Source of the DNA: an uncultured delta proteobacterium
Lineage (GTDB): Bacteria; Desulfobacterota; Binatia; Binatales; Binataceae
Assembly: GCA_963724765.1 (NCBI GenBank)
Contig: CAVRVY010000001.1
Coordinates: forward strand, 640,001-704,000
Length of the DNA: 64,000 nucleotides
Direction: 5' to 3'
The notes below the pieces were generated by a model, which was not told the DNA's origin, searched no databases, and saw only the letters and a list, made by a program, of their open reading frames with translations. A program made the translations under genes and the position numbers. Each line of letters opens with the position of its first letter. Position 1 is the first letter of the stretch. Shown here piece after piece: positions 12,011 to 36,155 of this stretch.

Positions 12011-12199
12011 AATCCGCAAGCACCCGTGTCGGCGGGCCGCGCGACGGATGGTCCGGGGTCGCCGCGACCCGCCACCCCACCCCAGCGGGCTCGAACTTGC
12101 CGACCCCGGCTTAGGGCAAGCCCGAGGCCCCAGATGGCCGCAGGCTACACTCGAATCCCGCCAGCGCGGTTTTCTCCTTTCACGGCGCTGTCCGTTCTG

Positions 12200-14945: not shown

Positions 14946-14957
14946 TCCGATGGGCGT

Positions 14958-17355: not shown

Positions 17356-19101
<1,746 letters not shown>

Positions 19102-19246
19102 GCTTCCTAAGCTTTCGTCCCGGCCGGCCTCACTACCGGCTGGTCTTCTGAGTGGCACGACGCGCATCGATCCGGGTCTCCGCTCTGCCGAGTCACTCTC
19201 CGGACCTTGCGTTGCTGTATCGGTCGGTGTTCCGAAATCCTTGATT

Positions 19247-19400
19247 ATAGGTTCGATTCGCCGCGAGTTTCTGGACCACATGGTCATCTTCAACGAGCGC
19301 CATTTACGTCGCGTCCTGTCGCTTTACGTTGACCAATGCGGATCAAGCGGCGAGCCGTTCGTAGCGATGATGCAGTCCGCCGACCTGCGTTATGGCGGTG
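19247..19400 (+). mobile_element. small remnants of an rve integrase-core element
   Basis: [24 protein letters not shown] is homologous to the C-terminal part of 14958-15992; followed by a [11 protein letters not shown] segment. Confidence 0.7.
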
Positions 19401-19628
19401 ATACTTCGCTTCTTTTGCGAGAGTACGAAAGCGACGCTGGTACCCCTCGCAAGTCGCCTTTACTGCGGGCAAATCTTGACGAAGGAAGGCGCTGCCCACA
19501 TCCCGCTCGAATTCGTCGAGAAGCGCCTCCGCTCGCGCGGGTGACAGCTCGTCGCTCAGTGCGTCAATTTCAGACAGAGCGGCGCGCAGCAGACCGTTGG
19601 CTGCTTCGTCATCCCATCGGTCGTTCAA
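19290..19628 (-). CDS. hypothetical protein (3' end overlaps rve remnant)
   Basis: protein-like helical composition in the first ~75 aa; no recognised motif. Confidence 0.35.
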
Positions 19629-19787
19629 CTCAAACCTCTCAAGCGGATCACGTCGGTCATGTCGAGGCGGCCGTGCGAGATGTGGGTGGCCGCAGCGACG
19701 AAACCATTATAACAGGTGGGCAGCGCGATTCGGGCGCGTCCATCTGCAAGATAGCTAGCAAAGAAAACGTGGGACTCCCCTTGTCAC

Positions 19788-19825
19788 CTGCGTACCTGCG
19801 GCGCAAAAGCGCCGCAGGTACGCAG
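19788..19825. repeat. perfect 17-bp hairpin
   Basis: CTGCGTACCTGCGGCGC-AAAA-GCGCCGCAGGTACGCAG. Confidence 0.9.
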
Positions 19826-19830
19826 TCTGT

Positions 19831-19988
19831 TCAGGCTTCGAAATAGCTCGGCTGGTCGATATCGGCGATAATCCCGGGCTGTTCGGCTCCCAGCCCAGCA
19901 GCGCCCGGGTACGCACGTTCGAGGCCGGGACATCCATTCCTGCGAACAGCGCGAACCAGGTAAGATAGTCGGTTAAATCATGCGCCAC
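19831..19988 (-). pseudogene. NAD-dependent epimerase/SDR C-terminal fragment
   Basis: WFALFAGMDVPAS..RTRALLGWEP then shifted DIDQPSYFEA*. Confidence 0.65.
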
Positions 19989-20100
19989 TTTGCCAAGGTT
20001 GCGAATGCGTTGTCTGGCCTAAGGTCAGCCTTAAGGGCCAACTCCAAGACGGAGACGCTATCCAAATCGACCCGATAATCTTCGACCTCGCTTGTCGAGC

Positions 20101-20945
20101 CATGCGGGCTGAAGCTCCATCGCTGCGAGCAACGAAGCCAGTCGCCAGACACTTACGGGTAAGCTGTTTGACGAAAGCGGCCTAAGCCTGACGCCGAGTC
20201 ATGCCGTGAAGGGTGAGCGGAGATACCGCTACTACGTGTCGCGCAGCCTGATCAGAGGGACAGGTGATTCGACAAGACGCGGTTGGCGCTTGCCAGCACC
20301 AGAGATCGAGCGAAGTGTTACCGCCGCGGCCTGCAAGATGTTGAGTGACCAGACCGCAATCGCAACCGCCGCTCAGGCGATTGGTCTCGCTGAGAATCGA
20401 CTTCCATCCGTTTTCACTCTGGCGCAAACCTGGAGACAGCGCCTGCAATCGGAAGTCGAAGCCGGAGCCGCCCTGACTACCTTGGTCCTGCGCATCGACC
20501 TGAGCGATTCGGGCATCCGATTAGCGCTCAAAGTGCCGATAGTCGACGGCGGCGTGCAGCCCGTTGTGAACGCCACCGAACTGATAATCCAGTGCGATGT
20601 TCCGATGCAGATCAGCGGCGTGGTGTCGAAATGCGTCTGGTCATCGAAGGCAATCGCACGGCGCCACGAGTCGAATTGGCACTGTTGAAGGCCGTTGCCC
20701 GGGCGCATCATTGGTCGGACGATCTGCTGAGCGGGCGATTGCCGTCAATTGCGAGACTTGCTGAGCGTGAAGGGGTCAGCGCGCGGTACGTCAGACGATT
20801 GATGCGATTGGCATTCCTGGCGCCGAAGATCGTCGAAATGATAGCGGCCGGTAGGCAGGCGCCAGAGCTAACTGCCGAGGCCTTGGGCGAACGGATCGAT
20901 CTCCCGCTCCTTTGGACTGCGCAAGAAGAAGCTTTGGGCGTCTGA
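20101..20945 (+). pseudogene. large serine recombinase C-terminal half, frameshifted
   Basis: LTGKLFDESGLSLTPSHAVKGERRYRYYVS...LLKAVARAH...RLAFLAP...GRQ; homologous to 23804-25498; frameshift near 20613. Confidence 0.88.
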
Positions 20946-21183
20946 GAGTCCGCACAGGTTCGATTACCGCCGCACTTTACGGCTGGCGAGTTGTTCAAAT
21001 CGGACCCATTGGGCGCCGCGAATGGATGGAACCGTCTCACTCGCCAACAGAGAAATCAGCCGCGTGTTGCGCGCAAACTATCGGAAACCGACTTTCTCCG
21101 GCGCCGCCAGACGCCTGAATGAAGCCGCAACTGCGCGCTATTTCGGCCAGCTGGGCGGAGAATCCGTGGGGACTAGGACTCGT

Positions 21184-21217
21184 TGGCGGAGCGGATGAAT
21201 TCAAACCCTCAGTACCG
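21184..21217 (-). repeat. degenerate tRNA-Ser 3'-end copy (att junction J1)
   Basis: TGGCGGAGCGGATGAATTCAAACCCTCAGTACCG vs tRNA strand TGGCGGAGAGGGAGGGATTCGAACCCTCGGTACCG at 34570. Confidence 0.8.
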
Positions 21218-22076
21218 ATTGTCCGGTCGCTAAAATAGGCGGTCCGATCCGCCTGATTATCGTGGGTATGTCCGGGGTTTTGGAGTTATGTAGGGTTACT
21301 TCTTTCCGCCACCTGTGCTCGGCTGTGATCGTCAGCAGCTTCTGGTGCGAAATCAACGGCGCCACATATTGCACGATTTGTAGAGCTGAGCCCACCAAGA
21401 GGAGGAATGCTCCGTAACCACCTAGCGCCCGATCTGGTAGGTTGTCGACCCACCATTCGACTGGTGGGCTGAGAATGGTAATCGCAGTGTTCAAAACGCC
21501 GGCTACCATGCCAATCTGAACACCGTAGAGAAGTGCCTCGGAACGCCCAGTCAATGCTCCGCTGACCACGCCAGCAATACCAATCAGTCCTCCTCTGACG
21601 ATTCCACCCCCTACCAAGCGCCGCTCGAGCTGGGGCTTCTGATAAATGCGATAGGTGTTCGTACCCAAGCCGAACTTGTATGCAATGTGCATCGCGAATG
21701 CGCTCAAAATGCCGAAGGCGATCCCGAAATTACGGCCAACAGTGAGCCATTCCGCCATTCCAAATGACAATCCCCTGATAGACGCGAAAACAGCCCACTC
21801 GGTGCTGGAGGCCTTAACGCCGGCCGCGCGTCGCGCTGGCTGAAACTCGACCGTTGGACCCAAGACCAATGCCCCGGCCAAACCGAACCATGTGCCGAGC
21901 AAGGCCGCGTAGCCGAGGCCGAAAATAGCGGAATAGGTCAACAGGCGCGAAAGTACCCGCAAAGGGCCGTGTTTAGCCCCAAGCAGATCGTTAGCCAAAT
22001 AGAGTCCGCCCAAAGCGTCGAACACTACTCCCGTCATGCTCAGAAGCGGAACGATTTTCGAAACGCCGACCATCAC
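21201..22076 (-). CDS. hypothetical multi-pass membrane protein
   Basis: 291-aa ORF with many Gly-rich hydrophobic segments; lower GC than flanks. Confidence 0.7.
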   Translation of the reverse strand: MMVGVSKIVPLLSMTGVVFDALGGLYLANDLLGAKHGPLRVLSRLLTYSAIFGLGYAALLGTWFGLAGALVLGPTVEFQPARRAAGVKASSTEWAVFASIRGLSFGMAEWLTVGRNFGIAFGILSAFAMHIAYKFGLGTNTYRIYQKPQLERRLVGGGIVRGGLIGIAGVVSGALTGRSEALLYGVQIGMVAGVLNTAITILSPPVEWWVDNLPDRALGGYGAFLLLVGSALQIVQYVAPLISHQKLLTITAEHRWRKEVTLHNSKTPDIPTIIRRIGPPILATGQSVLRV

Positions 22077-22199
22077 GCGACCCGCAGAACCAGCGCAAGA
22101 TGATTACGATCGTGAGCCCGACCTGTCTAGTTCGAAAAGAGAGCCGGCGTCGCGGCACCAGCGTCTAGCCGGTGCCGTAGGGTTCACTAAAGAAATTCT

Positions 22200-22446
22200 G
22201 TGGCCAAGATCGCGAAATTCACGCCATATGCGCGTCATTAGGCCTAGTCTGGCGATTCCGCCGTTTCGCCGGCTGCTGACTCCGCGCGCAATTTCGCCCT
22301 TCACGGATGAGATGAACGACCTCGAAGCGAAGTTCTGTGAACCGGCTTTCCGTGCCTCGCTCGAGTTCCTGGACTTCACCGATGACGGCTATCTACGCCA
22401 TCCAGCTTTCCAACGGTTCGCTGACGAGCTTTTCAGCAAGGTTTGA
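22200..22446 (+). pseudogene. ATP-dependent DNA ligase (LigD-type) C-terminal OB-fold fragment
   Basis: SPF...AKFCEP...LEFLDFTDDGYLRHPAF; 5' boundary approximate. Confidence 0.65.
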
Positions 22447-22694
22447 CTTAACCGCGCGCCGGGGGTCCCCAACTCGCGAGCGCGAGGCTCCGCGCATAAG
22501 CGCTAGCTGAATCATTGCTTCGTCCGAGCGGGCTGGCGTCAAAAGCCTTTACTGACGTTAGACTTTCGCTCCGGCGGAGAGTAATTCCTCGCGTCAGAAA
22601 AAACTCCCGCGAGGTCATCTCAATGCAAGGTGTCCTTCAGGCGCTCCACTCGTTCGCGTGGCCCGTGGCGATCGTCAATGTGAAGCGCTTTAGG

Positions 22695-22719
22695 TGGTGG
22701 AGGCGGGGGGAATTGAACC
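22695..22719 (-). other. tmRNA (ssrA)-like 3'-end fragment; att scar
   Basis: reverse complement GGTTCAATTCCCCCCGCCTCCACCA (T-arm plus acceptor ending CCTCCACCA). Confidence 0.65.
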
Positions 22720-22753
22720 GCCCACGAGACCCGCACACTCCTACCCGGAAAGA

Positions 22754-22990
22754 CTATCGTCCGCGCGATTGCGTTGCGGCTTTCTTGATCAAGGTCGCAG
22801 CCTTCGCTGCATAATCGTCATTCTTGAAGCCGAATACCGCTGCATATCTGCGACCGACAACTTGGGCCATTAGAAAGCTTGCGCTAATGCCGGCATTGCC
22901 TATCGCTTTGGCGAGCGCATAGCCCAGTCCCTGCCGATTGTCGCCCTCGACAAGCAGCACCGGAACGGGTGACGGGGCGAACCCGGAGCT
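22754..22990 (-). pseudogene. ACT-domain protein C-terminal fragment
   Basis: VLLVEGDNRQGLGYALAKAIGNAGISASFLMAQVVGRRYAAVFGF. Confidence 0.65.
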
Positions 22991-23119
22991 GTTAGCAGTG
23001 AGTGCTCTAAACCGACATTCCCGACGGTCAGCAAATCTCGGGAAATCCCGCACAACCGAATGAGGCCCCACACGCGAGCTATTTCGGCGCGTTGAGAGGC
23101 ACCGGAGATAGGGACTCGT

Positions 23120-23151
23120 TGGCCGAGCGGTGCGATTATAACCGTCGAGAC
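23120..23151 (-). repeat. degenerate tRNA-Ser 3'-end copy (att junction J2)
   Basis: GACTCGT-TGGCCGAGCGGTGCGATTATAACCGTCGAGAC; upstream GCTATTTCGGC also shared with J1. Confidence 0.6.
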
Positions 23152-23280
23152 GCCTCATTTCGCACATGCTTCCGCGCTCTCACGCGCATTTCTCCGGAGA
23201 GAAGTCTCGCAGGCAGAACGAGGTTGGCCGAAGGTCGTCGACTGTCAAGGTCAGCCCCGCTCCGGGGCCGTTTCCAAGGA

Positions 23281-23317
23281 CTGGCTATAGCCCGCGAAAC
23301 GAGCAATGTGTGTGTCC
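23281..23317 (+). promoter_or_regulatory. conserved promoter-like motif upstream of DUF2924 gene
   Basis: CTGGCT-N17-CAATGT followed by GTGTGTC; repeated at ~32050-32087. Confidence 0.55.
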
Positions 23318-23340
23318 ACCCGGAGAAGGAGCGGGTACGG

Positions 23341-23817
23341 ATGAAATGCTCGTTATCGAACATCGAGGGCCTCTCGGCGCAAATCGAAAATCTCGGGAAC
23401 CTCGGCCCTGAAGACTTGGACCTAACCTGGCGTGATCTGTTCGGATCCGATCGACCGCGCAGGGTTTGCGGCGATCTGCTGATCAAAGCACTCGGGTATC
23501 GGTTGCAGGAAAATGCAATCGGCGGCCTCAAACCTTCCACTCGCCGCCTGCTCGAGCGCTGGGGCAGAAACGGGTCGGAGCGAGGCCCATTGGCTGAGCC
23601 AGCCAGAACTCGACTGAAGGCGGGAACCGTCCTGGTTCGGGAATGGCACGGAGTCACTCATCGTGTGACCGTGCTGGACGACGGCTTTGACTTCCACGGT
23701 GAACGGTTCCGCTCGCTTTCGGAGATAGCGCGAAAGATCACGGGTGTCCGCTGGTCCGGTCCGCTCTTCTTCGGTCTGAAATCGTCGGCCAAGGAGCAGC
23801 GCCATGGAGCAGAGTAA
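23341..23817 (+). CDS. DUF2924-domain protein
   Basis: LGYRLQE..IGGL, GTVLVREWHGVTHRVTV, FRSLSEIARKITGVRWSGPLFFGL. Confidence 0.9.
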   Translation: MKCSLSNIEGLSAQIENLGNLGPEDLDLTWRDLFGSDRPRRVCGDLLIKALGYRLQENAIGGLKPSTRRLLERWGRNGSERGPLAEPARTRLKAGTVLVREWHGVTHRVTVLDDGFDFHGERFRSLSEIARKITGVRWSGPLFFGLKSSAKEQRHGAE

Positions 23818-25498
23818 GCCCAGGATTCGGCGCTGCGCCGTCTACACCCGCAAATCATCAGAGGAAGGCCTCGAGCAAGAGTTCAACTCGCTGCATGCCC
23901 AGCGCGAGGCCTGCGAAGCCTTCATCAAAAGCCAAGCCGGCGAGGGCTGGCGTTTAGTCAGGAACCATTACGATGATGGCGGCCTCTCCGGCGCCACCAT
24001 GGAACGGCCAGCGCTGCGACGACTTATGGCCGATATCGATAAGGGGCTGGTTGATGCGGTCGTCGTTTACAAGGTTGACCGGCTCACGCGCTCGCTGGCG
24101 GATTTCGCCAAGATGGTCGAGGTCTTCGATGCCCGCGGCGTCTCGTTCGTCGCCGTGACCCAACAGTTCAATACCACCACTTCGATGGGCCGCCTTACAT
24201 TGAACGTCTTGCTCTCGTTCGCGCAGTTCGAACGGGAGGTGACCGGGGAGCGCATCCGCGACAAGATCGCCGCCTCTAAGCGCAAGGGCATCTGGATGGG
24301 CGGCCTAGTGCCGCTCGGGTACGAGGTACGCGACCGCCAGCTGGTCATAAACGAAGCCGAAGCCACGACCGTGAGACACATCTTCACGCTCTATTGTGAG
24401 CTCGGTAGCGTGCGGCTGCTCAAGAACGAACTCGACCGACTTGGCGTCCGCTCGAAGATCCGCGTCTCCAAAGATGGAGTCGAGTCGGGTGGTCAGGCGT
24501 TCTCACGCGGGGCGCTTTATACGTTGCTGAGAAACCCAATCTATGTGGGTGAGATCCGTCACAAGGGCGTCTGCCATCCGGGCCAGCATGTGCCCATAGT
24601 CAACCGTGCTATGTGGGAGAAGGTTGCGCAACTGCTGCGCGGGCACAGCACCGGTTGCGGCCCACGAAGCTCAAGTACGAAGTCATGTGTGCTCATTGGC
24701 AAACTCTTCGACGAGAGCGGTGAGGGCCTGACGCCGAGCCATGCGGTGAAAGGCGACCGCCGCTATCGCTACTACGTTTCGCGCAGCTTGATGAAGGGAC
24801 CCGCCGCTCGCGTGGATGGCGGCTGGCGCCTGCCCGCCGCAGAGATCGAGCGCAGCATCGCGGCCGGTGCCCAAAGCATTCTCGATGATCAGCAGACGGT
24901 GATTTCCGCAGTTGAAGAGGCCGGGCTCGACTCGAGCCGGATCGCTCCGCTTCTCAAATCGGTTGCAGTATGGAGTGCGCGTCTGCGGTTTGAGCAAGAT
25001 AATGCGCTGTCATCGCTAATCGACCGGGTCGACCTTGACCAGGAGGGCCTGCGGCTTTCGATCAGACTCCCGCTCTCCAACGCCGAGAGCGGAGCACCAG
25101 ATGGTTCGAGTCATCTTTTAATCAAGCGTCACGTACCCATGCAGATCAGGCGGCGAGGGGTTGAGCTTCGACTCGTAATCAACGGCGGGGCGAGAGCGTC
25201 TTGCAAAACCGATCAGTCGCTGCTCAGAGCGGTGGCGCGAGCACACTGCTGGTTCGACGATCTCGTGAGTGGCCAATGCGGATCGATGGTCGAGATCGCC
25301 AAGTGCAACGGAGTCGGCAAGCAATACGTCAGCCGGCTTATACGTCTGGCGTTTCTCGCACCCGAGATGGTGGAGCGGATTGCGGCAGGCCGCCAACCGC
25401 CTGAGCTTACCGCGCAAAGTTTGCAGGCCGGCCGTTTCGATATTCCAGTGGACTGGGCGGCGCAAAAGCGAGCCCTCGGATTTTCGCAGCCGGCCTGA
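23804..25498 (+). CDS. large serine recombinase (resolvase plus recombinase domains)
   Basis: CAVYTRKSSEE (catalytic Ser), VVYKVDRLTRS, SFAQFERE, GG.VPLGY, LRNPIYVG; overlaps the DUF2924 stop. Confidence 0.95.
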   Translation: MEQSKPRIRRCAVYTRKSSEEGLEQEFNSLHAQREACEAFIKSQAGEGWRLVRNHYDDGGLSGATMERPALRRLMADIDKGLVDAVVVYKVDRLTRSLADFAKMVEVFDARGVSFVAVTQQFNTTTSMGRLTLNVLLSFAQFEREVTGERIRDKIAASKRKGIWMGGLVPLGYEVRDRQLVINEAEATTVRHIFTLYCELGSVRLLKNELDRLGVRSKIRVSKDGVESGGQAFSRGALYTLLRNPIYVGEIRHKGVCHPGQHVPIVNRAMWEKVAQLLRGHSTGCGPRSSSTKSCVLIGKLFDESGEGLTPSHAVKGDRRYRYYVSRSLMKGPAARVDGGWRLPAAEIERSIAAGAQSILDDQQTVISAVEEAGLDSSRIAPLLKSVAVWSARLRFEQDNALSSLIDRVDLDQEGLRLSIRLPLSNAESGAPDGSSHLLIKRHVPMQIRRRGVELRLVINGGARASCKTDQSLLRAVARAHCWFDDLVSGQCGSMVEIAKCNGVGKQYVSRLIRLAFLAPEMVERIAAGRQPPELTAQSLQAGRFDIPVDWAAQKRALGFSQPA

Positions 25499-25730
25499 AC
25501 CCGCGCCTATCAACAGCGGACCGGCAACAACCCTTCTTTTGTTCAAAGTAAAAGCGCCGAATCCATCACGCTAAGTCCACCGCCAAAAGTGCAAACAGAG
25601 AGAAATCTTCAAAACTCGCGTTTGAACCCCGGCGAGACCGGTTCTCCGGTGGACTTTAGGTGCCGGATTCCGGCCAAATGCGCCTTTTTTCACGCAGGTG
25701 ATGAGAGAATCCCGAAAACTGAAGACTCGC

Positions 25731-25754
25731 TGGCGGAGCGGGTGGGATTCGAAC
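25731..25754 (-). repeat. tRNA-Ser 3'-end copy (att junction J3)
   Basis: TGGCGGAGCGGGTGGGATTCGAAC, 22/24 identical to 34570-34593. Confidence 0.85.
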
Positions 25755-26065
25755 TGACAGGCGACTTTGTAGTCGATCAGTAAGCCAGTTGAACACGTCA
25801 AACAGACGTCGCTAGCAGACGTTGCCAGAAAGCCTACAAATCCTTCGGGTTGCGACTCATGCTGGTAGCCGCGCGGTAGCGGCGCCGACTGGCTGCGCGC
25901 GGCGGAGATCCGGCGCTTCCTTATCCAGTGAGAGGGACCACAGCGGAAGTGTGCCTGGCCGAACACGATTACGTGATCGAGGCATTCGCGACGAATCGAT
26001 CCAATGACCCGCTCAGCATGGCCGTTCTGCCATCCTCGCCTGAATCGGTGAACGACGAGGCGTTC

Positions 26066-27125
26066 TCAGCTTTCCATGTCGGGCCGATACTCCTTTGGCC
26101 CAAGTCCGAATGTCCACGCGACGGCTTGGTGCGCGGTCCGCACCGTGGGCGGCACACACAAAAAATATCGGCGGCGGCTGCCATCCGGCTCAGGTGTGCC
26201 GTTGAGCACTTCGACCAGAGCTATGGGCTCGGTCCAGTGCGGATCCAGGCGGTAAAGACGCCCGAAGCGATCGGCTTGGACGGGCTTGAGCCTCGCCTTC
26301 CGGACAAAGCGCTCATAGCCCAACCGCTCCAGCATCGCGCGCCGGATGGCGAGGTCCGGCTCGCGGACGATCTCCTCGACGCTCAGGCTCCGTGGATTTG
26401 TCACCAGCCTCTCGGGTACGCGCACGCCGTGAATCGCCCAGATCGCCCACCCGTCAGGATAAGCAAGCGCGGGTCCGCGCTCACAATGAAGGCGATTCTC
26501 AGGATCGCGCTCTAAGATAGATGGTGCTGAAGTAACGATGGCGACGCTGCCGAAGGACCACCACCAGCCGGCGCCAGCGCGCGCCAGTTCCATCCACTGA
26601 AGCACTGGCGATAATTCCCTCAATGCCGATGCGTGAGAAAAAGTCGCAACTGGCAAGCCACGGCGCATCGTGCAAACCGAATGCGGCATCGCCGAGGTTA
26701 AAAAATAAGTGCGGGAGCTCGCTTAGCAGGCGCGCCTGAATCTGATCGCGCAGCTGACGTCGAACCTGTTGCCGGACTTCCTGGTGGATGCGGGCCCGCA
26801 CCTCATCGCGCACCCTAGCTCGTACAGCACGGGAGACCTGCTGCCGCACGCGCCTTCTGACTGCATCCCGGAGGTGATGAGGCTTGAACATAACCCCCGC
26901 AGTCGTGCTGGCGGCTGCAAGCAGCCCTTCGTGGGGAGAATCAAAGGTGATAACTGAGTCCGGAGGTTGAAAACCGAGCGCAGAGTATAGTTCGGGCACG
27001 ATCCGCCTCACCGCCGGCCACTCCGTGCGTGTTGCGAGGCCGACCCGAAGCCACTCCTCGCGCACGACCGCCAGGAGCGCCAGCTGCTCCCCCGTCAGCG
27101 ATTTGAGTTTCTTTCTAATCCACAA
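26066..27125 (-). pseudogene. DUF6745-domain protein, frameshifted near 26610
   Basis: LTGEQ...W, V..QV repeats, G.HDAPWL; C-terminal GWWW, RLHCERGPAL.YPDGW...HGVRVP, VEVLNGTPEPDGSRRRYFLCVPP...AVAWTFGL...Y.P. Confidence 0.8.
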
Positions 27126-27438
27126 CGTAGCGATCCTGTCGCGGTTCGTATTCGCGTTGCCTGATGACCTCATAGACGCCTTTGGGCAGGCTTATGGGTG
27201 AGTGTTCCTGATGCTCCAGCAGGCCCTGCTCGTCGAGGAGCAGGTAGCAGACTCCGGGTCTAGAACCCTCGAACAATCGTCCCACCCGCGCATCGATTGA
27301 ATGGTTGTGGCCGGTCGCCTCGCCCCGCGCGAGGATGATGCGTTCGTTCTCAGCAGCGAGCTCGCCGCCGCGGCGGGCGAAATCCCTCGGACCAACCTCA
27401 CGGATCAGCACGTCTCCCTGCCTGTAGATCCTGCGCAT
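27115..27438 (-). CDS. small His-rich conserved protein (usual DUF6745 partner)
   Basis: YRQGDVL, LARGEATGHNH, LEHQEH..I.LP.G.Y...RQREY; RBS GGAAGGAG. Confidence 0.85.
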   Translation of the reverse strand: MRRIYRQGDVLIREVGPRDFARRGGELAAENERIILARGEATGHNHSIDARVGRLFEGSRPGVCYLLLDEQGLLEHQEHSPISLPKGVYEVIRQREYEPRQDRYVVD

Positions 27439-27995
27439 ACGATCTCTCCTTCCGTATTCTTGTGGCGCTCCCAAAATTTTCTGACATTTTCGCTTGTCAT
27501 CGGATCGACGGTGAGCCAGGCAACTACGTATCCTGATCTGCTTAAGCCCACAAATTTCAGCCTGTCCGCGCCGCCCTTCGCCGCGGTGGAAACCGAACAG
27601 ATACGTTGACCGACCAGTGACAGAACTCATCAGCTCTGCCCCGTCCAGCTCGAGCGGGGTCTCACTGAAGGAGCGGTAGTTGAGGGTGCGGATCGATATC
27701 GCTTCCACGCTGGAGCAAGCCCGCCCAAGACCCCGCCACTCCGCGGCCTCTCGTTCACGGAGCACGCGCTGGCGCGCGGACCGTAGCCGAAGGCGCCGCT
27801 TGGCCATATCGCAATCTGAATGAACGCGTGGGACGGCGGCGCGGCCCTTGGACAAAGGGACGACACCTCGCCTGTGGTTTATCTGCCCACACGCCGCTGC
27901 CAGTCGTTGAGCGGCTCCATTGATGGTGGGAAGCGTCGGCACTTCTTGCCCCCCGTGAGCCCGCCGGTTTATTAGTGAGGAATGATGACCTTCTA

Positions 27996-29077
27996 TTAAG
28001 TTCTGTATAATATAGTGACAAATGCTCTGGTCGGTGCTAATATGTGGCGCATGGGTAATCCAGCGGGTGTGCGGCGGGATTTCGCTGCGTTGGAAGAGCG
28101 GCGGATGGAGGCGGCGCGATTACTGCGACAAGGGCTTAGCCAGTCCGAGGTCGCGCGAGAGTTGGGCGTACACCGCCAGTCGGTTAGCCGCTGGGCGCGG
28201 GAACTTGGAGCATCGGGAGTGCGCGGCCTGCGCAAGGCCGGACGCACCGGGCGTCCAGCGAAGCTCATCCCGGCCCAGTTGCGCGACCTCGAGCGCGCAC
28301 TCAAGCGCGGACCCGAGGCGTTCGGATTTGCCAGCGGACTGTGGACCGCGAGTCGGGTGCGCGATCTCATCGAGTACCGGACCGGGGTGCGATACCACGA
28401 GGACCACGTCTGGCGCATCCTGCGCAAGCTTAACTGGACCTGCCAGCGTCCCACTGGAAAAGCGCTCGAGCGCGACGAGCAGGCAATCCGGCAGTGGAAG
28501 AAGTACCGCTGGCCGCAGATTAAAAAAAAGCGCTCTGCGAGCGGCGCACCATCGTGTTCATCGACGAAAGCGGACTGAGCGAACGGCCGCATCGGGTGCG
28601 GACCTGGGCGCCGCGCGGGCAGACTCCGGTGCTGCAGTATCACTTCAACTGGAAGGTGCTGTCGGCCACAGCCGGCATCACCTGGTGGAACTTTTACTTC
28701 CGGCTCTATCCCACAACCATCCGCGCCCCTCAGGTGGTGGACTTCCTCGGCCACCTGTTGCGTCATCTGCCGGGGAAGCTGTTGGTGGTGTGGGACGGAC
28801 TGCCGGCGCATCGGGCGCGCTTGGTAACCGAATTTATCCGCGCGCAGCGTGGCCGGCTGGCGCTCGAGTGGCTGCCGGGTTACGCGCCGGAACTCAACCC
28901 GGTGGAGTACATCTGGGGTTACTGGAAACACCACGAACTGCCCAACTTCTGTCCCCGCGATTTCACCCAGCTCAGCCATCAGGCCCGCCGCGCGCTGCGC
29001 CGCATGCGTCGGCGCCCACGCTTGGTGAGATCCTTCTGGCATCAAGCAAAACTGTCACTATAAAATGCAGGACTTAA
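27996..29077 (+). mobile_element. IS630-family element, apparently intact (orfA 28042-28578, orfB to 29063 via -1 frameshift)
   Basis: IRs TTAAGTTCTGTATAATATAGTGACA / TGTCACTATAAAATGCAGGACTTAA; TA on both sides; A8G at 28522-28530; IDESG, WDG, PGYAPELNPVE. Confidence 0.93.
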
Positions 29078-29266
29078 TAATACTCCTTTAAACTGCACTG
29101 TCAAACATGCTGACGCCAACCAGAACTCGCCGCATGAATCATTCCTTCCTTGGTCTTCAGCTAAGCATGAAGGGCGCTGATTTGAAGCGTAGGATTGGCA
29201 ACAAAGCGATGGCGTTTTGCGTAGCAGGGCGCATTTCCGGTAAGTGCGGATGTCGAGGTGTCAACG

Positions 29267-30496
29267 ATGGGGTCATTGCTCATTCACGATTGCACACTAA
29301 TCGATTGCACCGGACGCGACCCGCGGACGCACGCCTGGGTGCGTGTCGAGGGCGAGCGCATCGCTGGCATCGGCAGCGGCGCTCCACCGCAGGTTGATGG
29401 CGTCATCGAAATCGAAGCGGCCGGACGCGTGTTGATGCCCGGACTGATCGATGCGCACGCGCATCTGAGCATCATCGGCAACATCACCGAGCAGAGCCGC
29501 GGATCGCTGCCGGTTCGCTTCCTCAAGATCGCCCGCGAGATTGAGGAAACGCTGGCTGACGGCTTTACCACCGTGCGCGACGCCGGCGGCCTGGATTGGG
29601 GCTACAAGGAGGCGATTCGACAAGGCCTGCTGCATGGTCCGCGGCTCTTCGTCAGCAACGGTGTGCTCTCACAGACGGGCGGCCATGGCGACCTGCGTCC
29701 ACGCACGATGGCGGATCCGGAATCGCAGACGCCGGGCCTCTGGTCGATCGGGATTGTTGTTGACGGTCCCGACCATGTGCGCTGGGGCGCCCGAGAGATG
29801 CTCCGGCGCGGCGCCGATCAGATCAAGGTGATGGCGAACGGCGGATGCGTTTCGCCGACTGACGAGCTTACCTCGGTTCAGTTCACGGTTGCGGAATTGC
29901 GCGCCGCGGTCGAGGAAGCGGCGGCGCAAGGTAAATACGTGATGGCCCACACCTACACCGCCGCGAGCATGACGAACTGCCTCGACGCCGGGGTGCGCAC
30001 ACTGGAACACGGAAATTTCATCTCGAGTGAGGTCGCCGAACGAATGGCGCGGGGTGGAACGTTCCTGGTGCCGACGATCGCGACTTACGAATTGCTCGCC
30101 GCCGATGGGCGCTCGCTCGGCTATCCCGAATACGTGATTCAAAAGATCGAACACGCGTTGAAGGGCGCCTATGAGGCCCTCTCAATCGCGCGCCAGGCCG
30201 GCGTCAGGATTGGCTCGGGTTCCGACGTCCTGGGCGCGCAGCAGCGCAAGAAGGCCTTTGAACTGGGATACAAGGGCAAAGTCATGTCGCCGATGGAAGT
30301 GCTGATCGCGACGACGATGACCAACGCCGAGATCGTTGGTGCGCAGAACGACCTCGGCAGCATCGAGACCGGAAAGTTGGCCGATCTGCTGTTGGTCGAT
30401 GGCAACCCACTGGACGACCTGTCGGTCCTCGCGGACCGCGCGCGCATCCACATGGTGATCCAGGGCGGAACAATCGTCGCCGACCGCCGCCCGTGA
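29267..30496 (+). CDS. metal-dependent amidohydrolase (Xaa-Pro dipeptidase-like)
   Basis: MPGLIDAHAH, GFTTVRDAGG, GADQIK, MAH, LEHG, GSD, GKLADLL. Confidence 0.92.
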   Translation: MGSLLIHDCTLIDCTGRDPRTHAWVRVEGERIAGIGSGAPPQVDGVIEIEAAGRVLMPGLIDAHAHLSIIGNITEQSRGSLPVRFLKIAREIEETLADGFTTVRDAGGLDWGYKEAIRQGLLHGPRLFVSNGVLSQTGGHGDLRPRTMADPESQTPGLWSIGIVVDGPDHVRWGAREMLRRGADQIKVMANGGCVSPTDELTSVQFTVAELRAAVEEAAAQGKYVMAHTYTAASMTNCLDAGVRTLEHGNFISSEVAERMARGGTFLVPTIATYELLAADGRSLGYPEYVIQKIEHALKGAYEALSIARQAGVRIGSGSDVLGAQQRKKAFELGYKGKVMSPMEVLIATTMTNAEIVGAQNDLGSIETGKLADLLLVDGNPLDDLSVLADRARIHMVIQGGTIVADRRP

Positions 30497-30755
30497 AGCC
30501 TGCGGATAGCAGAGTGGTCGTCCACATACTGGACGCTCTGGCGCGCTGAACAGGACTTCGGACCGCGAAGCGCGTTCGCGGCAGCGCGTGCCACTCACTG
30601 GAATACTTGGGGCGGGGCCCGGCGCTAAGCGGCGTGCTTTTTGAGGAGAGCGCAACGATCGCATGTATCGAGTACGGTGTTAGGCCCGCGATGGGAAGGC
30701 ACGCTCGGAGAAGCCTTCGCGGCGTTGGTCTCCGAGATTCAGGCGATCGATGGCT

Positions 30756-31523
30756 TCATCTCCATGGACGACTTTCAGAGCCAGACGCGGCCCCAGCCGG
30801 GAGAATTTTAGATTCGTGCATGCCGACATAGAGGCCTCGGCCCATCAAGCCCTCAGAGTCGTACCGCACTTCCATACCGTTAAACTCGAACGCCCACGTC
30901 ATCTCGTCGCGCGTGAACAAACCCAATTCGATACGCTCGCTGCAGTGCTCGACGCTATCCGGCTTGCTTCGCAGGTAGTCATACAGGAGAAGCGACAGCT
31001 GTCCTTCCCTGAGGCTGATGCTCCTGCGGAATACCTTGTCGGCTCCGACCTCGCCAGCGAGGATGAACGGCCTGGCGGGACGCCACTGCTCGGGGGTGAA
31101 CCATGGCTCGATGATCAACGCACCGCCGGGTCTTACATGACGCACCATGCAGGCGATCGCACGCTCGAGGCGCTCGAAGGTCTTGACGATACCGATCGCG
31201 CTGAACAGACAGGTGACCACGTCGTAAATGCGCCCGAGATCGAAGTCCATCATGTCGGCACGGGTATAGTTGCCCGAGGGGTTCTTCAGCCGCGCAGCGA
31301 GTAGATAGTTCTCGTTGATGTCGATGCCGTCGACCGCGTAGTGGTGCTTGAGGAATTTCGCGTGCGTGCCGGTGCCGCACGCAACATCGAGGATCGTGCG
31401 CGCGCCAGGTACAACCTCATTGATCAGGCTGCGCAGGCGGTCACATTCACGCGCGTAATCCTTGAAATGATAGATCGCGTCGTAAAGCTCCGGGCTGTCT
31501 ATGAACATGTGGGTACGCGGCAC
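30756..31523 (-). CDS. class I SAM-dependent methyltransferase (TylM1/DesVI-like)
   Basis: YDAIY..KDYARE, LDVACGTG, DVVTCLFSAI, PGG.LIIEPW. Confidence 0.9.
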   Translation of the reverse strand: MPRTHMFIDSPELYDAIYHFKDYARECDRLRSLINEVVPGARTILDVACGTGTHAKFLKHHYAVDGIDINENYLLAARLKNPSGNYTRADMMDFDLGRIYDVVTCLFSAIGIVKTFERLERAIACMVRHVRPGGALIIEPWFTPEQWRPARPFILAGEVGADKVFRRSISLREGQLSLLLYDYLRSKPDSVEHCSERIELGLFTRDEMTWAFEFNGMEVRYDSEGLMGRGLYVGMHESKILPAGAASGSESRPWR

Positions 31524-31597
31524 GTGTTTGCACCCTCATCCTGACGTCGTTTGATCAGTGAAGAGAGTAAATCAGGTGACAGGTGACGCGTACAACT

Positions 31598-31901
31598 CGC
31601 CCCAGGAACCTGCGCAAGAGACCCAGCCTTTCGCCGCCAGGGCTTGGACGCGGAAATGACTTTGCGGATCTCTTGCTCAACCGCAGCAAGCTGTTCCTTG
31701 AGCGCTCGCAGGTGCGCGTTGATCAATGTGCGTCTTGGGTGCGCGATCTCTCCGGTTCGATTCGGCGGTCATTATCTCGATCAACTGACGATGGCGGGTG
31801 AACAGCGCGGAGAGTTCGCGGGAAGCGGCGTCGGGCAATGGTCGCGGCTCCGGCCGCATCACCTCGGCAAAGTGCGCCAGCACTTCCGCGTCGATCCCGT
31901 C
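31598..31901 (-). mobile_element. IS110-family transposase internal fragment
   Basis: D.IDAEVLAHFAEVMRPEPRPLPD...RHRQL..MTAE.NR; INAHL...LAQVPG. Confidence 0.75.
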
Positions 31902-32114
31902 AACCTGCGGCTTGCCAGAGCAAATCGCCTTCCGGTCCTCGACCCGGTTTCTCGGGGGACGCTGCCCGGGTCGCGGAGATCGACCCGATTAGCCTTCGCA
32001 TCGCCTTCCGTTCGCCTGAAGGGCACGATGCCAGCAGCGCGGAAAATGACTGGCTGCGCGCCGGGAAACGAGCAATGTGTGTGTGTCTATCTTCTGAAGG
32101 GAGCGATCAGCGGA

Positions 32115-32597
32115 ATGACACATGGGTTGGCCGAAACCGGGCCGGAAAAACTTGCCCAGGATTTGAAGGATCTGGGAACGCGAGGCGACGACGAGCTAAA
32201 AGAACGCTGGCGCAACTTGTACGAGACGGAGCCGCCCGGCAAAATTCATCGCTCTCTGCTGATCCCGGCAATCGCGTATCGAATGCAGCAGAATGCTCTG
32301 GGCGCGCTCAAGGCTTCGATCCGCCGTCACCTAATGCGCGTCGGCAGAAACACAGCGGATGGCCGACAAGCACCGGGTTATCCGAGTCTCAGTCCTAAAC
32401 CGGGAACTGTGTTGGTACGCGACTGGGGCGGAGTCACCCATCAGGTGAAGGTGCTCGAATCCGGGGTCCTATTTCGTGGCAAACGATACAAATCACTTTC
32501 CGAGGTCGCGCGTCTCATCACCGGCGCGCGTTGGTCGGGACCACTGTTCTTCGGCCTCAAATCCGCAGCCAAGGAGCAAAGTCATGGAACCCGGTAG
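32115..32597 (+). CDS. DUF2924-domain protein
   Basis: IAYRMQ, PGTVLVRDWGGVTHQV, YKSLSEVARLITGARWSGPLFFGL. Confidence 0.9.
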   Translation: MTHGLAETGPEKLAQDLKDLGTRGDDELKERWRNLYETEPPGKIHRSLLIPAIAYRMQQNALGALKASIRRHLMRVGRNTADGRQAPGYPSLSPKPGTVLVRDWGGVTHQVKVLESGVLFRGKRYKSLSEVARLITGARWSGPLFFGLKSAAKEQSHGTR

Positions 32598-34272: not shown

Positions 34273-34567
34273 CCCGGGACGCTCGTACCATCGCGCAGTT
34301 GGGTTTTCTGATATGGGCGGTAATTTCTCCCATCAGAAACGAGACAATGGCGCTCCTCCGCACCACTCGCGATGTCCGCAGATCTCTACCATGCAATGTG
34401 CTCGCCCAGGGCATCGGCACCGAATTCCTCGCCCACAGAGAGAAAATCGAAGTGACGCGGCACGGCTCGCCATGTCCGCGCTCTCCGGTGCCGATGGGCC
34501 GTGCGCATCGCCACCACCCGCGCGCAGTTTGCGCACTTCCCCGAAGAATGCCTCAAACCTGAGACTC

Positions 34568-34661
<94 letters not shown>

Positions 34662-34907
34662 GCAGGCTCGGGAAAAGCCCTGGGAGACAATTTTTACGCG
34701 CTCATCGTGAGACTGGCAACCTTGCCTCCCCGGGTATCCAGCGGGTCTGCGGCCAGTGTGACATTATGCGGGGCGTCGTCAGGCGGCGCGTCTCCAACTC
34801 GACCGACCGTACGGCGAGGGAAGGCCGCCTCTTGCTGAAAGTTCACGAGACTCCCGGTATCGTCATTCAATAAGCTGGATTGGCGGCTGGCCACGGGGTT
34901 ATCGCCG

Positions 34908-36104: not shown

Positions 36105-36155
36105 CCGGTCCTTCGATCGGCTAGGCACATCCGTCGCTGCTTCGTAGGAGAAAGC

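Follow-up and report, generated by a model that had tools for sequence, protein, structure and literature searches.

Organization of the locus

The window (the whole 64-kb stretch of DNA analyzed here) carries a tandem array of integrated elements at the 3' end of a tRNA-Ser(GCT) gene, and inside this array, between the tRNA-like junctions J2 and J3, lies a unit, here called E2 (23120-25754), that consists of a non-coding left end of ~194 bp, a DUF2924 gene, a gene for a large serine recombinase (LSR), a right arm of ~230 bp and nothing more. The tRNA-like stretches start at 21184 (J1), 23120 (J2) and 25731 (J3) and the true tRNA-Ser(GCT) at 34570, with unit lengths of 1,936 bp (J1-J2), 2,611 bp (J2-J3, E2) and 8,839 bp (J3-tRNA). 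The following features were located.

20152-20939, + strand: older LSR, C-terminal remnant, truncated and frameshifted, followed by its arm and J1
21176-23111, no strand assigned: J1 and a 1.9-kb unit without recombinase module (no LSR or DUF2924 match)
23112-23146, + strand: J2, degenerate copy of the tRNA-Ser 3' end (tRNA-like from 23120), attL-like left junction of E2
23131-23226, + strand: left end (P'-type), 78% to G000:C4:1587319-1587417
23276-23315, + strand: conserved upstream motif (GACTGGCT ... GAGCAATGTGTGT), 26 nt upstream of the DUF2924 start
23341-23817, + strand: DUF2924 gene, 158 aa, intact (Pfam PF11149)
23804-25498, + strand: LSR gene, 564 aa, intact (PF00239, PF07508)
25499-25730, + strand: right arm (P-type), non-coding, with position-specific family motifs
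25726-25760, + strand: J3, copy of the tRNA-Ser 3' end (25731-25754), HMM E 2.4e-9
25755-34569, + strand: 8.8-kb cargo-bearing relative with DUF6745, amidohydrolase and methyltransferase genes, then motif, gene pair and arm
32115-32597, + strand: DUF2924 gene of the 8.8-kb element, paired with its LSR gene
32584-34272, + strand: LSR gene of the 8.8-kb element, 60% identical to the E2 LSR
34570-34661, - strand: tRNA-Ser(GCT), target gene (ARAGORN; Rfam tRNA, 64.1 bits), 3' end towards the array

J3 has a double role as right junction of E2 and left junction of the 8.8-kb element, and both ends of E2 are tRNA fragments because the unit is internal to the array. When the window was scored with a junction HMM built solely from the four true tRNA-Ser 3' ends of the genome, the match was strong at J3, clear at J1 (E 1.5e-4) and marginal at J2 (E 0.057). 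The score of J2 alone is weak, and its weight comes from the context: J2 has 27 of 35 bases (77%) in common with J1, including an identical 12-nt prefix that represents the arm end, and it forms a border between right-arm-type sequence, the 70 nt before it matching at 73-80% the right arms found elsewhere in the family (best E 6e-10), and left-end-type sequence after it. The array as a whole displays the Islander-type signature, with tRNA-Ser(GCT), J3, J2 and J1 all on the same strand. The left end of E2 aligns at 78% over 99 columns (window 23134-23226; E 3e-13) with that of a 4.3-kb junction-to-junction element of the same family in the same genome (C4:1583111-1587444). This element is bounded by a J2-type left end, which supports the use of J2 as a boundary that the earlier note had assumed; for the E2 lineage itself the boundary rests on this C4 paralogue, since none of the contigs obtained for close relatives extends over the left end.

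The upstream motif is 83% identical to 32045-32084 in the 8.8-kb element, precedes six other DUF2924 genes of the genome as well, and of 136 family loci 39 contain its core, which there keeps a fixed distance to the LSR gene, 495-694 bp ahead of its start. It had been described as promoter-like, and while its conservation was borne out, a sigma-70 consensus scan of 22900-25900 gave 0 sites, and therefore the motif can be regarded only as a candidate promoter or operator of the DUF2924-LSR operon; Rfam had no family at this position. Two motifs stand in the right arm 139 and 27 nt ahead of the tRNA-like T, ACAGAGA (25592) and GAGAAT (25704) respectively. Both are at canonical family positions: in a set of 99 unique family arms ACAGAGA was found 30 times at 130-139 nt, and GAGAA[TA] fell into two ranges, 130-139 nt (36 occurrences) and 20-29 nt (18 occurrences). 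The arm of E2 is 86-88% identical in the relatives L144 and L142. The left ends of 59 pseudo-tRNA junctions had no strong motif past ~+37, and dyad symmetry at the junctions and in the computed joined-end attP (10-13 of 22; random sequence averaged 10.5 and reached 13 at most) marked no crossover.

The neighboring units differ in their state of preservation. The J1-J2 unit ends in a partial right arm, with homology over the last 70 nt only, and its 291-aa ORF matched no family, so that it looks like a decayed, possibly cis-mobilisable remnant. The older LSR is represented by aa 297-448 and 449-559 (46-57% identical), with a frame change at 20613. The module of the 8.8-kb element (32045-34604) is 88% identical to that of genome G002, with cargo that the two do not share, and in two public runs (X2, X3) a left end 99.4% identical to that of the 8.8-kb element (from 25735; 4-5 differences per 777 nt) stands behind a different flank. 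On the other side of the tRNA gene, no more than 4 of 16 congeners contain an orthologue (E 1e-40 or better) of the right-flank gene (34908-36104). Elsewhere in this genome frameshifted family copies occur at C3:224935 and C4:1723191, and rpoD is duplicated.

The DUF2924 and recombinase genes

The DUF2924 gene starts with ATG at 23341 and its product matches PF11149 with E 4.1e-42 (144.1 bits against a gathering score of 31.2), the family alignment containing 31 invariant columns. A homologue (L100) has a weak match to the Pfam RAMA family (PF18755; E 0.0024, 18.2 bits against a cut-off of 35.2). The predicted C-terminal domain of DUF2924 resembles MPND (Z 5.5, rmsd 4.0, 63 residues aligned) and the C-terminal domain of CcrM (Z 5.4), and its N-terminal helices resemble Rho-N, SAP and LEM folds (Z 4.5-7.2), all of these similarities being middling (Z below 8). 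Foldseek against the PDB gave no match at E 0.001 or better (the MPND-DNA complex reached E 1.2), and a PDB sequence search gave nothing below E 0.58. DUF2924 is therefore predicted, from modeled folds, to be a two-domain DNA-binding partner of the recombinase. This companion is present at 78 of 80 loci in each of three sets, from genomes, metagenomes and IMG/VR.

The ATG of the LSR gene overlaps the stop region of the DUF2924 gene by 14 nt. The recombinase has the catalytic domain (PF00239, E 2.1e-38) and the recombinase domain (PF07508, E 2e-11, residues 185-279) of LSR integrases, and R10, Y14, R16, S18, S19, D92, R93 and R96 are invariant across 12 LSR family members. Profile matches in the PDB included the TP901-1 catalytic domain (3e-26), an unnamed 500-aa integrase (9iu2; 4e-17) and A118 (5e-10), the profile aligning with the C-terminal region of the A118 integrase (residues 170-353). 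A zinc ribbon was not matched in Pfam at E 0.01 or better, and no cysteines beyond C11 and C37 are invariant among the 12 members. No NCBIfam model reached its cut-off; the LSR scored well below those for the SCC cassette recombinases (CcrB 126.5 of 900 bits, CcrA 74.9 of 700, CcrC 69.7 of 900) and for IS607 (28.8 of 110). Measured against metagenomic relatives at 89-94% nucleotide identity, dN/dS was 0.15 for DUF2924 (against L197) and 0.09 (aa 1-197) and 0.33-0.36 (remainder) for the LSR, values of 0.09-0.36 that indicate purifying selection on both genes.

The two genes are overlapped by six further ORFs of at least ~100 aa, five of them antisense and one on the same strand out of frame, and none has a Pfam family above threshold, the best match being a sub-threshold alpha/beta-hydrolase (18.6 bits against a cut-off of 25.8). 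Our analysis thus agrees with the earlier note, which had described a minimal unit of ~2.6 kb between two tRNA-like junctions, with a left end of ~190 bp carrying a conserved motif, an overlapping DUF2924-LSR pair and no cargo, replication or transfer genes, and had taken the 8.8-kb unit, which has the same motif, gene pair and arm, for a cargo-loaded relative; all features were found at or within a few bases of where it had placed them. Its term "IS-sized" holds for the size, whereas the traits of an insertion sequence are lacking: E2 has no inverted repeats, no multiple copies and no transposase, and its target is restricted to tRNA 3' ends. In the 5.4-Mb genome it is single-copy, and no other family copy exceeds 64% identity in protein or 76% in DNA.

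The family and the recurrence of the 2.6-kb form

The family is large, with matches at no fewer than 574 genome loci, 584 metagenome loci and 477 IMG/VR loci, while a plasmid collection contained distant relatives only, mostly below 60% identity and mostly on Ralstonia megaplasmids. In this genome the arm end AGACT follows every one of the four tRNA-Ser genes, each of which has a DUF2924-LSR pair nearby. At 37 of 80 genome-contig loci the LSR gene is followed within 1 kb by a tRNA gene on the opposite strand, most often for Ser (18) and Gln (10), followed by Met (3), Lys (2), Ala (2), Phe (1) and Arg (1).

Moreover, the bare 2.6-kb form was found repeatedly. A junction-to-junction unit of ~2.6 kb lies directly at tRNA-Ser(CGA) in a congeneric genome (G010), and metagenome contigs contain a 2,623-bp unit directly at tRNA-Ser(GCT), identical to the window's over 60 nt (L147), and a 2,636-bp unit (L168), so that homologues do not always lie inside larger elements. 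The left neighbors of the other 2.6-kb units are unrelated. A same-strand junction 587-774 bp upstream of the LSR start was present at 9 further loci, compared to one locus with an opposite-strand junction in that range, and another such left end occurs in the same genome (C4:1722411), as well as at L242. Likewise, in pairs of loci with at least 85% nucleotide identity the common part is only the 2.3-2.6-kb module without cargo, and for 60 of 75 pairs the homology begins 300-700 bp ahead of the LSR start, while for 34 of 50 it stops at the junction. The LSRs of minimal units do not cluster in the tree but belong to at least 3-4 separate clades, the starred branches forcing at least 3 changes. 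Minimal units form a minority in unbiased samples, with 4 of 50 metagenome loci and 1 of 81 genome loci when the loci with enough upstream sequence for a fair count are considered.

Relatives close to E2 itself are few. The best LSR relative in the genomes of 40 related species is 66% identical, and of the four closest relatives L142 has a truncation at aa 71, frameshifts interrupt L143 and L144, and L197 is a contig of 1,091 nt that covers LSR aa 1-197 only. In L142 and L144 the right neighbor differs from that in the window, the sequences diverging ~50 nt past J3.

The earlier note had proposed a search for a J2/J3 circle junction and for empty alleles. When contigs of four public runs, a form of data in which rare forms are dropped, were compared with 18500-36500, neither an E2 circle (25742 to 23131) nor an E2 deletion or E2-empty joint was among the 15 joints listed. 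Apparent skips from 25754 to 34633/34636 had sides of 21-24 nt with 39-40 foreign letters between them; they were read as tRNA-Ser genes of other organisms. One contig of run X4 had a backward joint from 25604 to 23294 (side 32, with unknown letters between). As to the claim that E2 defines the minimal mobile unit, the recurrence of bare units supports it by comparative inference, whereas movement of the E2 copy was not seen.

Alternative explanations

The first alternative is that E2 goes back to a larger element whose cargo was lost once it had integrated, and that it is an immobile or dying relic that has kept its recombinase genes. Decay is indeed evident in the array and genome, as seen in the older LSR, the J1-J2 unit and the frameshifted copies on C3 and C4, and E2 could be a deletion derivative because in the C4 element, whose left end is the same, an additional 1.6 kb separates left end and motif. 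The single copy of E2, the low frequency of minimal units and the condition of its closest relatives, three of which are broken while the fourth is only partly covered, point in the same direction. However, independent deletions would each have had to stop between left end and motif, although junctions at the corresponding distance from the LSR start are found at the 9 loci and additionally in E2, G010, C4:1722411 and L242, and minimal units occur in several LSR clades. Furthermore, the G010 and L147 units adjoin the tRNA gene, which is the most recent position in an array, and the genes and ends of E2 are intact, with dN/dS well below 1. Repeated cargo loss fits the same data more poorly than a minimal unit does, and we consider this origin of E2 rather unlikely.

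A second alternative holds that the mobile unit is the 4.5-kb block J1-J3 or a larger one, that J2 is an internal relic of accretion, and that the 2.6 kb never move alone. Consistent with this, the J1-J2 unit has junctions without a recombinase, as in known cis-mobilisable elements (PMC5704250 and PMC3146451), J1 and J2 have the same 12-nt arm end, and in run X3 one contig contains the J1-J2 unit and E2 with precisely the joint of the window. Such an arrangement is nevertheless compatible with solo movement, and accretion itself needs a recombinase-bearing unit that integrates alone beside a remnant. In addition, the J1-J2 unit has only the last 70 nt of the arm, without the distal ACAGAGA motif, and its right junction may therefore no longer be a good substrate, while the left neighbors of other 2.6-kb units are unrelated. 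Taken together, a composite of this kind appears quite improbable.

Finally, a chance resemblance at J2 or a mis-assembly of the array from repeats, for which only the marginal score of J2 against true tRNA-Ser ends would speak, is hardly credible in view of the arm homology before J2 (E 6e-10) and left-end homology after it (E 3e-13), of a 604-nt contig of run X3 (22581-23184) that crosses J2 with 0 differences, and of the 46-60% identity among the three LSR copies of the array, which are too divergent for collapse or expansion by an assembler.

Proposed mechanism

We therefore favor, as fairly likely, the explanation that E2 is a cargo-less integrative element of a widespread DUF2924-LSR family that inserts into the 3' ends of tRNA genes, and E2 is a real and probably functional member of this family. 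In the proposed circular form the right arm (25499 to ~25742) would be joined with the left end (from ~23131), creating an attP that mimics the tRNA-Ser 3' end, and the LSR would recombine this site with the 3' part of the tRNA-Ser gene. The arm end (GACTCGC-TGGCGGAG...) would take the place of the tRNA tip, so that the tRNA gene stays whole, and the displaced tip would remain as the left junction. Each new element would insert between the tRNA gene and earlier arrivals; since newcomers land next to the tRNA, E2 would be younger than the J1-J2 remnant and older than the 8.8-kb element. DUF2924, whose translation would be coupled to that of the LSR, is most likely an architectural or directionality factor that attaches to the long motif-bearing arms, and the motif before it might serve as promoter or operator of the operon. 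Because E2 has no transfer genes, its spread would depend on carriage by other DNA, on transformation or on joint movement with its array neighbors, and the copy in the window may still be active.

A further-reaching version of this model can be offered tentatively. The 2.6-kb DUF2924-LSR module might be a selfish and self-sufficient "site-specific insertion sequence" that targets tRNA genes, and islands in these bacteria might be built primarily by it: bare modules would land beside remnants at tRNA 3' ends and mobilise them in cis, and loss of internal junctions would yield cargo-bearing elements. Accretion followed by loss of internal junctions would explain why relatives share the module only, with homology ending at the motif and cargo that differs. 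DUF2924 would then be a new arm-binding accessory or directionality factor that gives serine integrases complex att sites such as those of tyrosine integrases.

Comparison with known systems

Like the LSRs of phages and islands (TP901-1, A118, SPbeta SprA, Bxb1, phiC31; CcrB), the E2 recombinase has an N-terminal resolvase-type catalytic domain and a recombinase domain. The att sites of classical LSRs are ~40-50 bp, whereas the arms of the E2 family are long, with motifs fixed ~27 and ~135 nt from the core, and the family has in addition a constant, co-translated DUF2924 partner. With transposons of the IS607 family and Tn4451 type E2 has in common that a very small mobile DNA carries a serine recombinase as its sole enzyme. 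Those transposons use small serine transposases or TnpX, have low or different target specificity and occur in several copies, while members of the E2 family insert site-specifically at tRNA genes and each variant is present once. Textbooks and databases link integration at tRNA genes with tyrosine integrases. Likewise, serine integrases are described as not known to target tRNA genes in PMC4383910, and in the openly accessible articles searched no description of the DUF2924-LSR family or of its cargo-less units was found. The family represents serine recombinases that integrate at tRNA genes in several phyla together with a near-constant, uncharacterised partner, and it offers compact tRNA-specific integrases for genome engineering and a concrete model of island growth by accretion. 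Moreover, the bare form delimits what integration needs to two genes and ~430 bp of ends, and the roles of DUF2924 and of the long arms are therefore directly testable.

In phage WO of Wolbachia a recombinase gene also lies directly downstream of a DUF2924 gene, but this is a prophage of roughly 65 kb, for which the available part of the report mentions neither a tRNA target nor a cargo-less form (PMC10299305). The tycheposons of Prochlorococcus, termed "minimalistic gene shuttles", resemble the E2 family as small tRNA-targeting elements with partial tRNA copies and tandem arrays; however, 910 of 937 have tyrosine recombinases and an LSR is found only in the rest, many carry replication genes and cargo, and DUF2924 does not appear in the accessible portion of the preprint (bioRxiv 10.1101/2020.12.28.424599). 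Accretion as known from ICEs, IMEs and CIMEs likewise builds arrays by site-specific integration beside decayed units that keep attL and attR (PMC5704250). In the same review IMEs by definition possess mobilisation functions (relaxase or oriT), of which E2, having only DUF2924 and the LSR, has none, and serine-recombinase IMEs integrate inside genes and disrupt them, whereas the target of the E2 family is a tRNA 3' end and the gene is restored.

A close parallel to the array is found in the ssrA islands of Dehalococcoides (McMurdie et al., 2011; PMC3146451). In the excerpts of that study these are tandem islands downstream of a small-RNA gene that are bounded by direct repeats of its 3' end, with a serine-recombinase integration module at one edge and no conjugation genes, and some units without the module were interpreted as cis-mobilisable. 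Their target is the tmRNA gene with a 20-bp repeat, and the excerpts report neither DUF2924 nor a cargo-less unit. The Dehalococcoides module comprises six genes (among them the CcrB-like DsiB, the small serine recombinase DsiA, and RecF-, ParB- and Mom-like genes; PMC3146451), whereas that of E2 consists of two genes and can stand alone.

Organization of the array at tRNA-Ser(GCT)

The source genome comprises 5.4 Mb in four contigs (C1-C4), and public collections list its relatives as Candidatus Binatus, Binataceae or 'uncultured delta proteobacterium'. The sole tRNA gene of the window, tRNA-Ser(GCT), has its 3' end toward the left, where three plus-strand copies of the tRNA 3' part (junctions J1, J2 and J3) are found, each directly preceded by an arm end of the form (A/G)GACTCN(N). 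From left to right the order is as follows, with LSR standing for large serine recombinase, arm for the non-coding right end between an LSR stop codon and a junction, and E2 for the unit in question.

17356-19293, minus strand: rpoD
~850 bp between rpoD and the truncated LSR: debris
20152-20939: C-terminus of an LSR, truncated and frameshifted, then its own arm and J1
21184 (start), plus strand: J1
J1-J2 unit, 1,936 bp: without any recombinase gene, ending at J2
23120 (start), plus strand: J2
J2-J3 unit (E2), 2,611 bp, ending at J3, composed of J2, 194 bp of non-coding DNA, the two genes below, a 232-bp arm and J3
23341-23817: DUF2924 gene, ATG at 23341, 158 aa (Pfam E 4.1e-42)
23804-25498: LSR gene, 564 aa (Resolvase E 2.1e-38, Recombinase E 2e-11)
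25731 (start), plus strand: J3
J3-tRNA unit, 8,839 bp: cargo (DUF6745, amidohydrolase, methyltransferase) and its own DUF2924-LSR pair, followed by the tRNA gene
34570-34661, minus strand: tRNA-Ser(GCT)

The earlier note had described a ~2.6-kb unit with only DUF2924 and an LSR between two tRNA-like junctions, and this observation was confirmed: J2, J3, the arm and the gene pair, whose members overlap by 14 nt, were found without any cargo family, and a Pfam search of the remaining ORFs overlapping the two genes gave no family above threshold. Since the three LSR copies of the array share only 46-60% pairwise identity, the array is, as judged from sequence, a chain of distinct elements and not a duplication.

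Several further observations concern the left part of this region. Within the debris (19294-20150), an apparent C-terminal end of an IS3/IS481-type transposase was read by eye at 19294-19400, and the array's oldest element seems to have been cut by an IS event. Further to the left, 7566-15992 holds several rve and Mutator transposase ORFs. The genome carries two rpoD-like genes (window 17356-19293 and C3:835724-837481, 93% identical over residues 58-645), the congeners G003 and G014 likewise have two rpoD matches each, and one of the two in G014 has a frameshifted DUF2924-LSR unit 3 kb away. The J1-J2 unit contains a fragment like a tmRNA 3' end at 22693-22764 (TGGTGGAGGCGGGGGGAATTGAACC...; E 0.032 with a tRNA-end HMM, Rfam tmRNA match at E 0.099, far under gathering), which is similar to C2:332233-332262 and may be a relic of an element formerly in ssrA. 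The same unit holds a 136-aa ORF at 22036-22446, probably a gene fragment, with a sub-threshold match to the C-terminal region of ATP-dependent/NHEJ DNA ligases (Pfam 21 bits versus a cut-off of 27.5; TIGR02779 19.1 bits versus 227.75).

J2 as a boundary

A junction HMM derived solely from the four genuine tRNA-Ser ends of the genome gave E 2.4e-9 for J3, 1.5e-4 for J1 and 0.057 for J2 in the 64-kb window. By this score alone J2 would not convince, but its context does. The 70 nt upstream of J2 resemble the right arms of four further members of the family at 73-80% (best E 6e-10), and the 93 nt downstream (23134-23226) are 78% identical (E 3e-13) to C4:1587319-1587417, the left end of a 4.3-kb junction-to-junction unit in which a junction, 1.6 kb of small unassigned ORFs, the upstream motif, DUF2924, LSR, arm and a second junction follow one another. 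J2 therefore lies exactly at the meeting point of a right-arm-type and a left-end-type sequence. None of the contigs compared reaches the left end of any close E2 relative. The closest relative (metagenome contig L142, 1243-3237; 92% aa identity) is cut at residue 71; an inverted junction immediately precedes the cut, and its own right junction is followed by another inverted junction with an arm. This arrangement resembles the result of an inversion or deletion between junctions of opposite orientation.

In one contig of the public sequencing run X4 (depth 9.6), position 25604 in the arm, at a ACAGAGAGAAA motif, is joined back to 23294 within the upstream motif, with an unknown number of letters between them and 32 nt on the shorter side. 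This joint is not the junction expected of an E2 circle, and it may stem from a related array in another organism in which an arm is closely followed by the next module.

Recurrence of the bare unit

The bare junction-to-junction unit recurs, with complete homologues of ~2.6 kb and the same gene content in a related species genome (G010:C39, directly at tRNA-Ser(CGA), with another arm beyond the left junction) and on the metagenome contigs L147 (2,623 bp, its right junction equal to the window's tRNA-Ser(GCT) over >60 nt, to the contig end) and L168 (2,636 bp, within an array). In L179, L157, L168, L147, L170, L102, L172, L194 and L207, a same-strand junction precedes the LSR start by 587-774 bp, opposite-strand junctions in this range amounting to only one; left ends of the bare-unit kind also occur in L242 and at C4:1722411, where the LSR is frameshifted, and slightly larger units of 2.9-3.7 kb in L185, L152, L148 and G004. 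The bare form is a minority: it was seen at 1 of 81 genome loci and, among metagenome LSR starts preceded by 850 bp or more, at 4 of 50, both counts being lower bounds because the junction model detects only tRNA-Ser-like junctions. Units of 2.7-3.5 kb delimited by direct repeats of tRNA parts were also found in Alphaproteobacteria at tRNA-Gln and tRNA-Ser targets, the repeats matching at 15 of 15 bases in L088, at 23 of 26 in L100 (complete genome of Humitalea sp.) and, only suggestively, at 11 of 11 at the same tRNA positions in L102, L123 and L136. In a maximum-likelihood tree built by quick search from 67 full-length LSRs, those of the five minimal units (E2, G010, L147, L157 and L168) require at least three changes on well-supported branches.

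The LSR of the G010 bare unit shares 90.6% DNA identity with one in the related genome G020 (L049), both at tRNA-Ser(CGA). Homology of G020 to G010 ends inside DUF2924, of which the last ~30 codons are left, and the next junction is 7 kb off, so that the two appear as a close pair with differing left halves.

Distribution of the family

Within the source genome 25 LSR matches were detected, and seven further near-full-length copies are 57-64% identical to that of E2. Members of the family occupy each of the four tRNA-Ser genes (TGA, GCT, CGA and GGA; C1:178460, C1:674570, C2:58516 and C3:243682), an arm end following the gene and a DUF2924-LSR pair lying nearby in all four cases. Dozens of pseudo-tRNA-Ser junctions lie elsewhere in the genome, one cluster with both orientations at C3:80-92 kb. 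Among 40 related species genomes, the LSR was found at E 1e-100 or better in 10 of 24 from the same family and in 0 of 16 from other families. Relatives of the LSR number at least 574 among species-representative genomes (Binatia, Alphaproteobacteria, Acidobacteriota and others), at least 584 in JGI metagenomes and at least 477 in IMG/VR; DUF2924 stands beside the LSR at 78 of 80 loci in each of three samples (genome, metagenome and IMG/VR). Among 80 genome loci, the LSR is followed within 1 kb by an opposite-strand tRNA gene in 37 (Ser 18, Gln 10, Met 3, Lys 2, Ala 2, Phe 1, Arg 1). Alphaproteobacterial members often have a third small gene in front, DUF3489, which encodes a winged-helix-like small protein; L088, L100, L123 and L136 are such units (DUF3489, DUF2924 and LSR; 3.0-3.5 kb, at tRNA-Gln or tRNA-Ser). 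The L100 unit, from the cultured Humitalea sp. 24SJ18S-53 (NZ_CP192599.1), measures 3.3 kb and is situated at tRNA-Ser(GGA). No DUF3489 was detected among the window ORFs scanned.

The upstream motif and the module as a shared unit

The stretch 23276-23315 upstream of the E2 DUF2924 gene is 83% identical to 32045-32084 of the 8.8-kb unit and also matches the upstream regions of six other DUF2924 genes in the genome. With up to 2 mismatches allowed, 39 of 136 family loci contain its core GAGCAATGTGTGT at 495-694 bp before the LSR start, in every case preceded by GACTGG(C/A)T. The motif is a genuine conserved element and, by its position 26 nt before the start codon, is a candidate promoter or operator; a sigma-70 consensus scan of 22900-25900 found no site, and Rfam no family at the motif. 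The letters GACTGG(C/A)T at its start (23280-23287) recur at many right-arm ends just before the tRNA-like TGGCGGAG, for example in L147 and at C4:1587; the corresponding arm end of E2 is 25722-25730. A recombinase half-site could thus be contained in the motif, serving autoregulation or acting as a pseudo-site of cargo exchange, but no more than 5-6 letters are shared and the resemblance may be chance.

In a comparison of locus pairs at 85% to 98.5% nucleotide identity, which are non-independent, 60 of 75 pairs had the left end of their homology 300-700 bp ahead of the LSR start and none had it beyond 2.5 kb, and in 34 of 50 the right end coincided with the junction, 1,900-2,100 bp past the LSR start. 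For example, the module of the 8.8-kb unit (32045-34604) is 88% identical to that of the related genome G002, and the two have no cargo in common. The pattern reflects either rapid replacement of cargo immediately ahead of the motif or solo movement of modules that then acquire neighbours.

Signs of function in the proteins and the arm

The catalytic residues of the E2 LSR are conserved. Relative to the metagenomic relatives L142, L143, L144 and L197 (89-94% nucleotide identity), dN/dS was 0.09 for LSR residues 1-197, 0.33-0.36 for the rest of the LSR and 0.15 for DUF2924. Three of these four closest relatives are broken, which was counted against function of E2, and the fourth contig spans only LSR aa 1-197. 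The E2 arm carries the family motifs in their usual places: in a set of 99 unique arms, 30 occurrences of ACAGAGA fall 130-139 nt ahead of the tRNA-like T (139 nt in E2), and GAGAA[TA] is found at 130-139 nt in 36 cases and at 20-29 nt in 18 (GAGAAT at 27 nt in E2).

An alignment of the E2 LSR with 11 relatives contains no invariant cysteine past residue 37, and Pfam gave no zinc-ribbon match in the family. An RYRYY motif (Y321, R322, Y323) is kept at the zinc-ribbon position of LSRs, and this region may be a cysteine-free version of that domain. For DUF2924, sequence searches found no solved homologue. An AlphaFold model (16 sequences, pLDDT 72.5, pTM 0.42) predicts four helices, then a four-stranded sheet with helices, for which Foldseek returned nothing at E 0.001 or better. 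With VIA-align, middling matches were obtained for residues 3-60 (T4 endonuclease VII C-terminal region, Z 7.2; Rho N-terminal domain, Z 5.6; LEM and SAP domains, Z 4.5-5.2) and residues 88-154 (mouse MPND, Z 5.5; CcrM C-terminal domain, Z 5.4). The fold matches of the model, together with a sub-threshold Pfam RAMA match of a homologue, point to a putative DNA-binding accessory protein, which might bind to the arms or to the LSR.

Origin of the unit and comparison with known systems

We consider it rather likely that E2 is a cargo-less integrative element. By LSR-mediated attP x attB recombination it would have inserted alone at what was then the site next to the tRNA gene; the tRNA tip would have been restored by its arm end, and the later arrival of the 8.8-kb element would have moved it inwards. 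The earlier note had read E2 as the minimal mobile unit and the 8.8-kb unit as its cargo-loaded relative. This reading is supported in part: the relative does bear cargo and its own DUF2924-LSR pair, and the bare form recurs, but no direct sign of mobility was detected. This absence keeps alive the rival explanation that E2 is a remnant left by deletion, which we regard as possible though distinctly less probable, since the same end-to-motif spacing in separate clades weighs against random deletion, as do two bare units in tRNA-proximal position.

In L142 and L144, an E2-like LSR, arm and junction (89-94% identical) are followed by ~50 nt of weaker similarity and then unrelated DNA; E2-like elements are therefore not always beside the 8.8-kb element. 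Contigs of runs X2 and X3 carry the left end of the 8.8-kb element (25735-26511, 4-5 differences) after a different, non-arm-like flank, and J3 is therefore also a boundary of that element. Of the remaining rivals, that E2 is part of a composite moving only with its neighbours is improbable. Chance or artefact is scarcely credible, a 604-nt contig of X3 that spans J2 with zero differences arguing against mis-assembly.

The described systems nearest to E2 are the ssrA islands of Dehalococcoides (PMC3146451), the model of accretion and CIMEs (PMC5704250), phage LSR integrases, phage WO with its DUF2924-recombinase pair (PMC10299305) and tycheposons (bioRxiv 10.1101/2020.12.28.424599). In the openly accessible text searched, neither the DUF2924-LSR family nor its bare form was found described. 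According to the 2014 Islander paper, serine integrases were then not known for tRNA gene targeting (PMC4383910); a serine recombinase at tRNA-Met is mentioned for one Paracoccus phage in PMC6536676. Serine-recombinase integrative elements in accretion arrays are a known kind, within which the family of E2 stands out by targeting tRNA genes, by having DUF2924 as a constant partner and long structured arms, and by a two-gene bare form that recurs.
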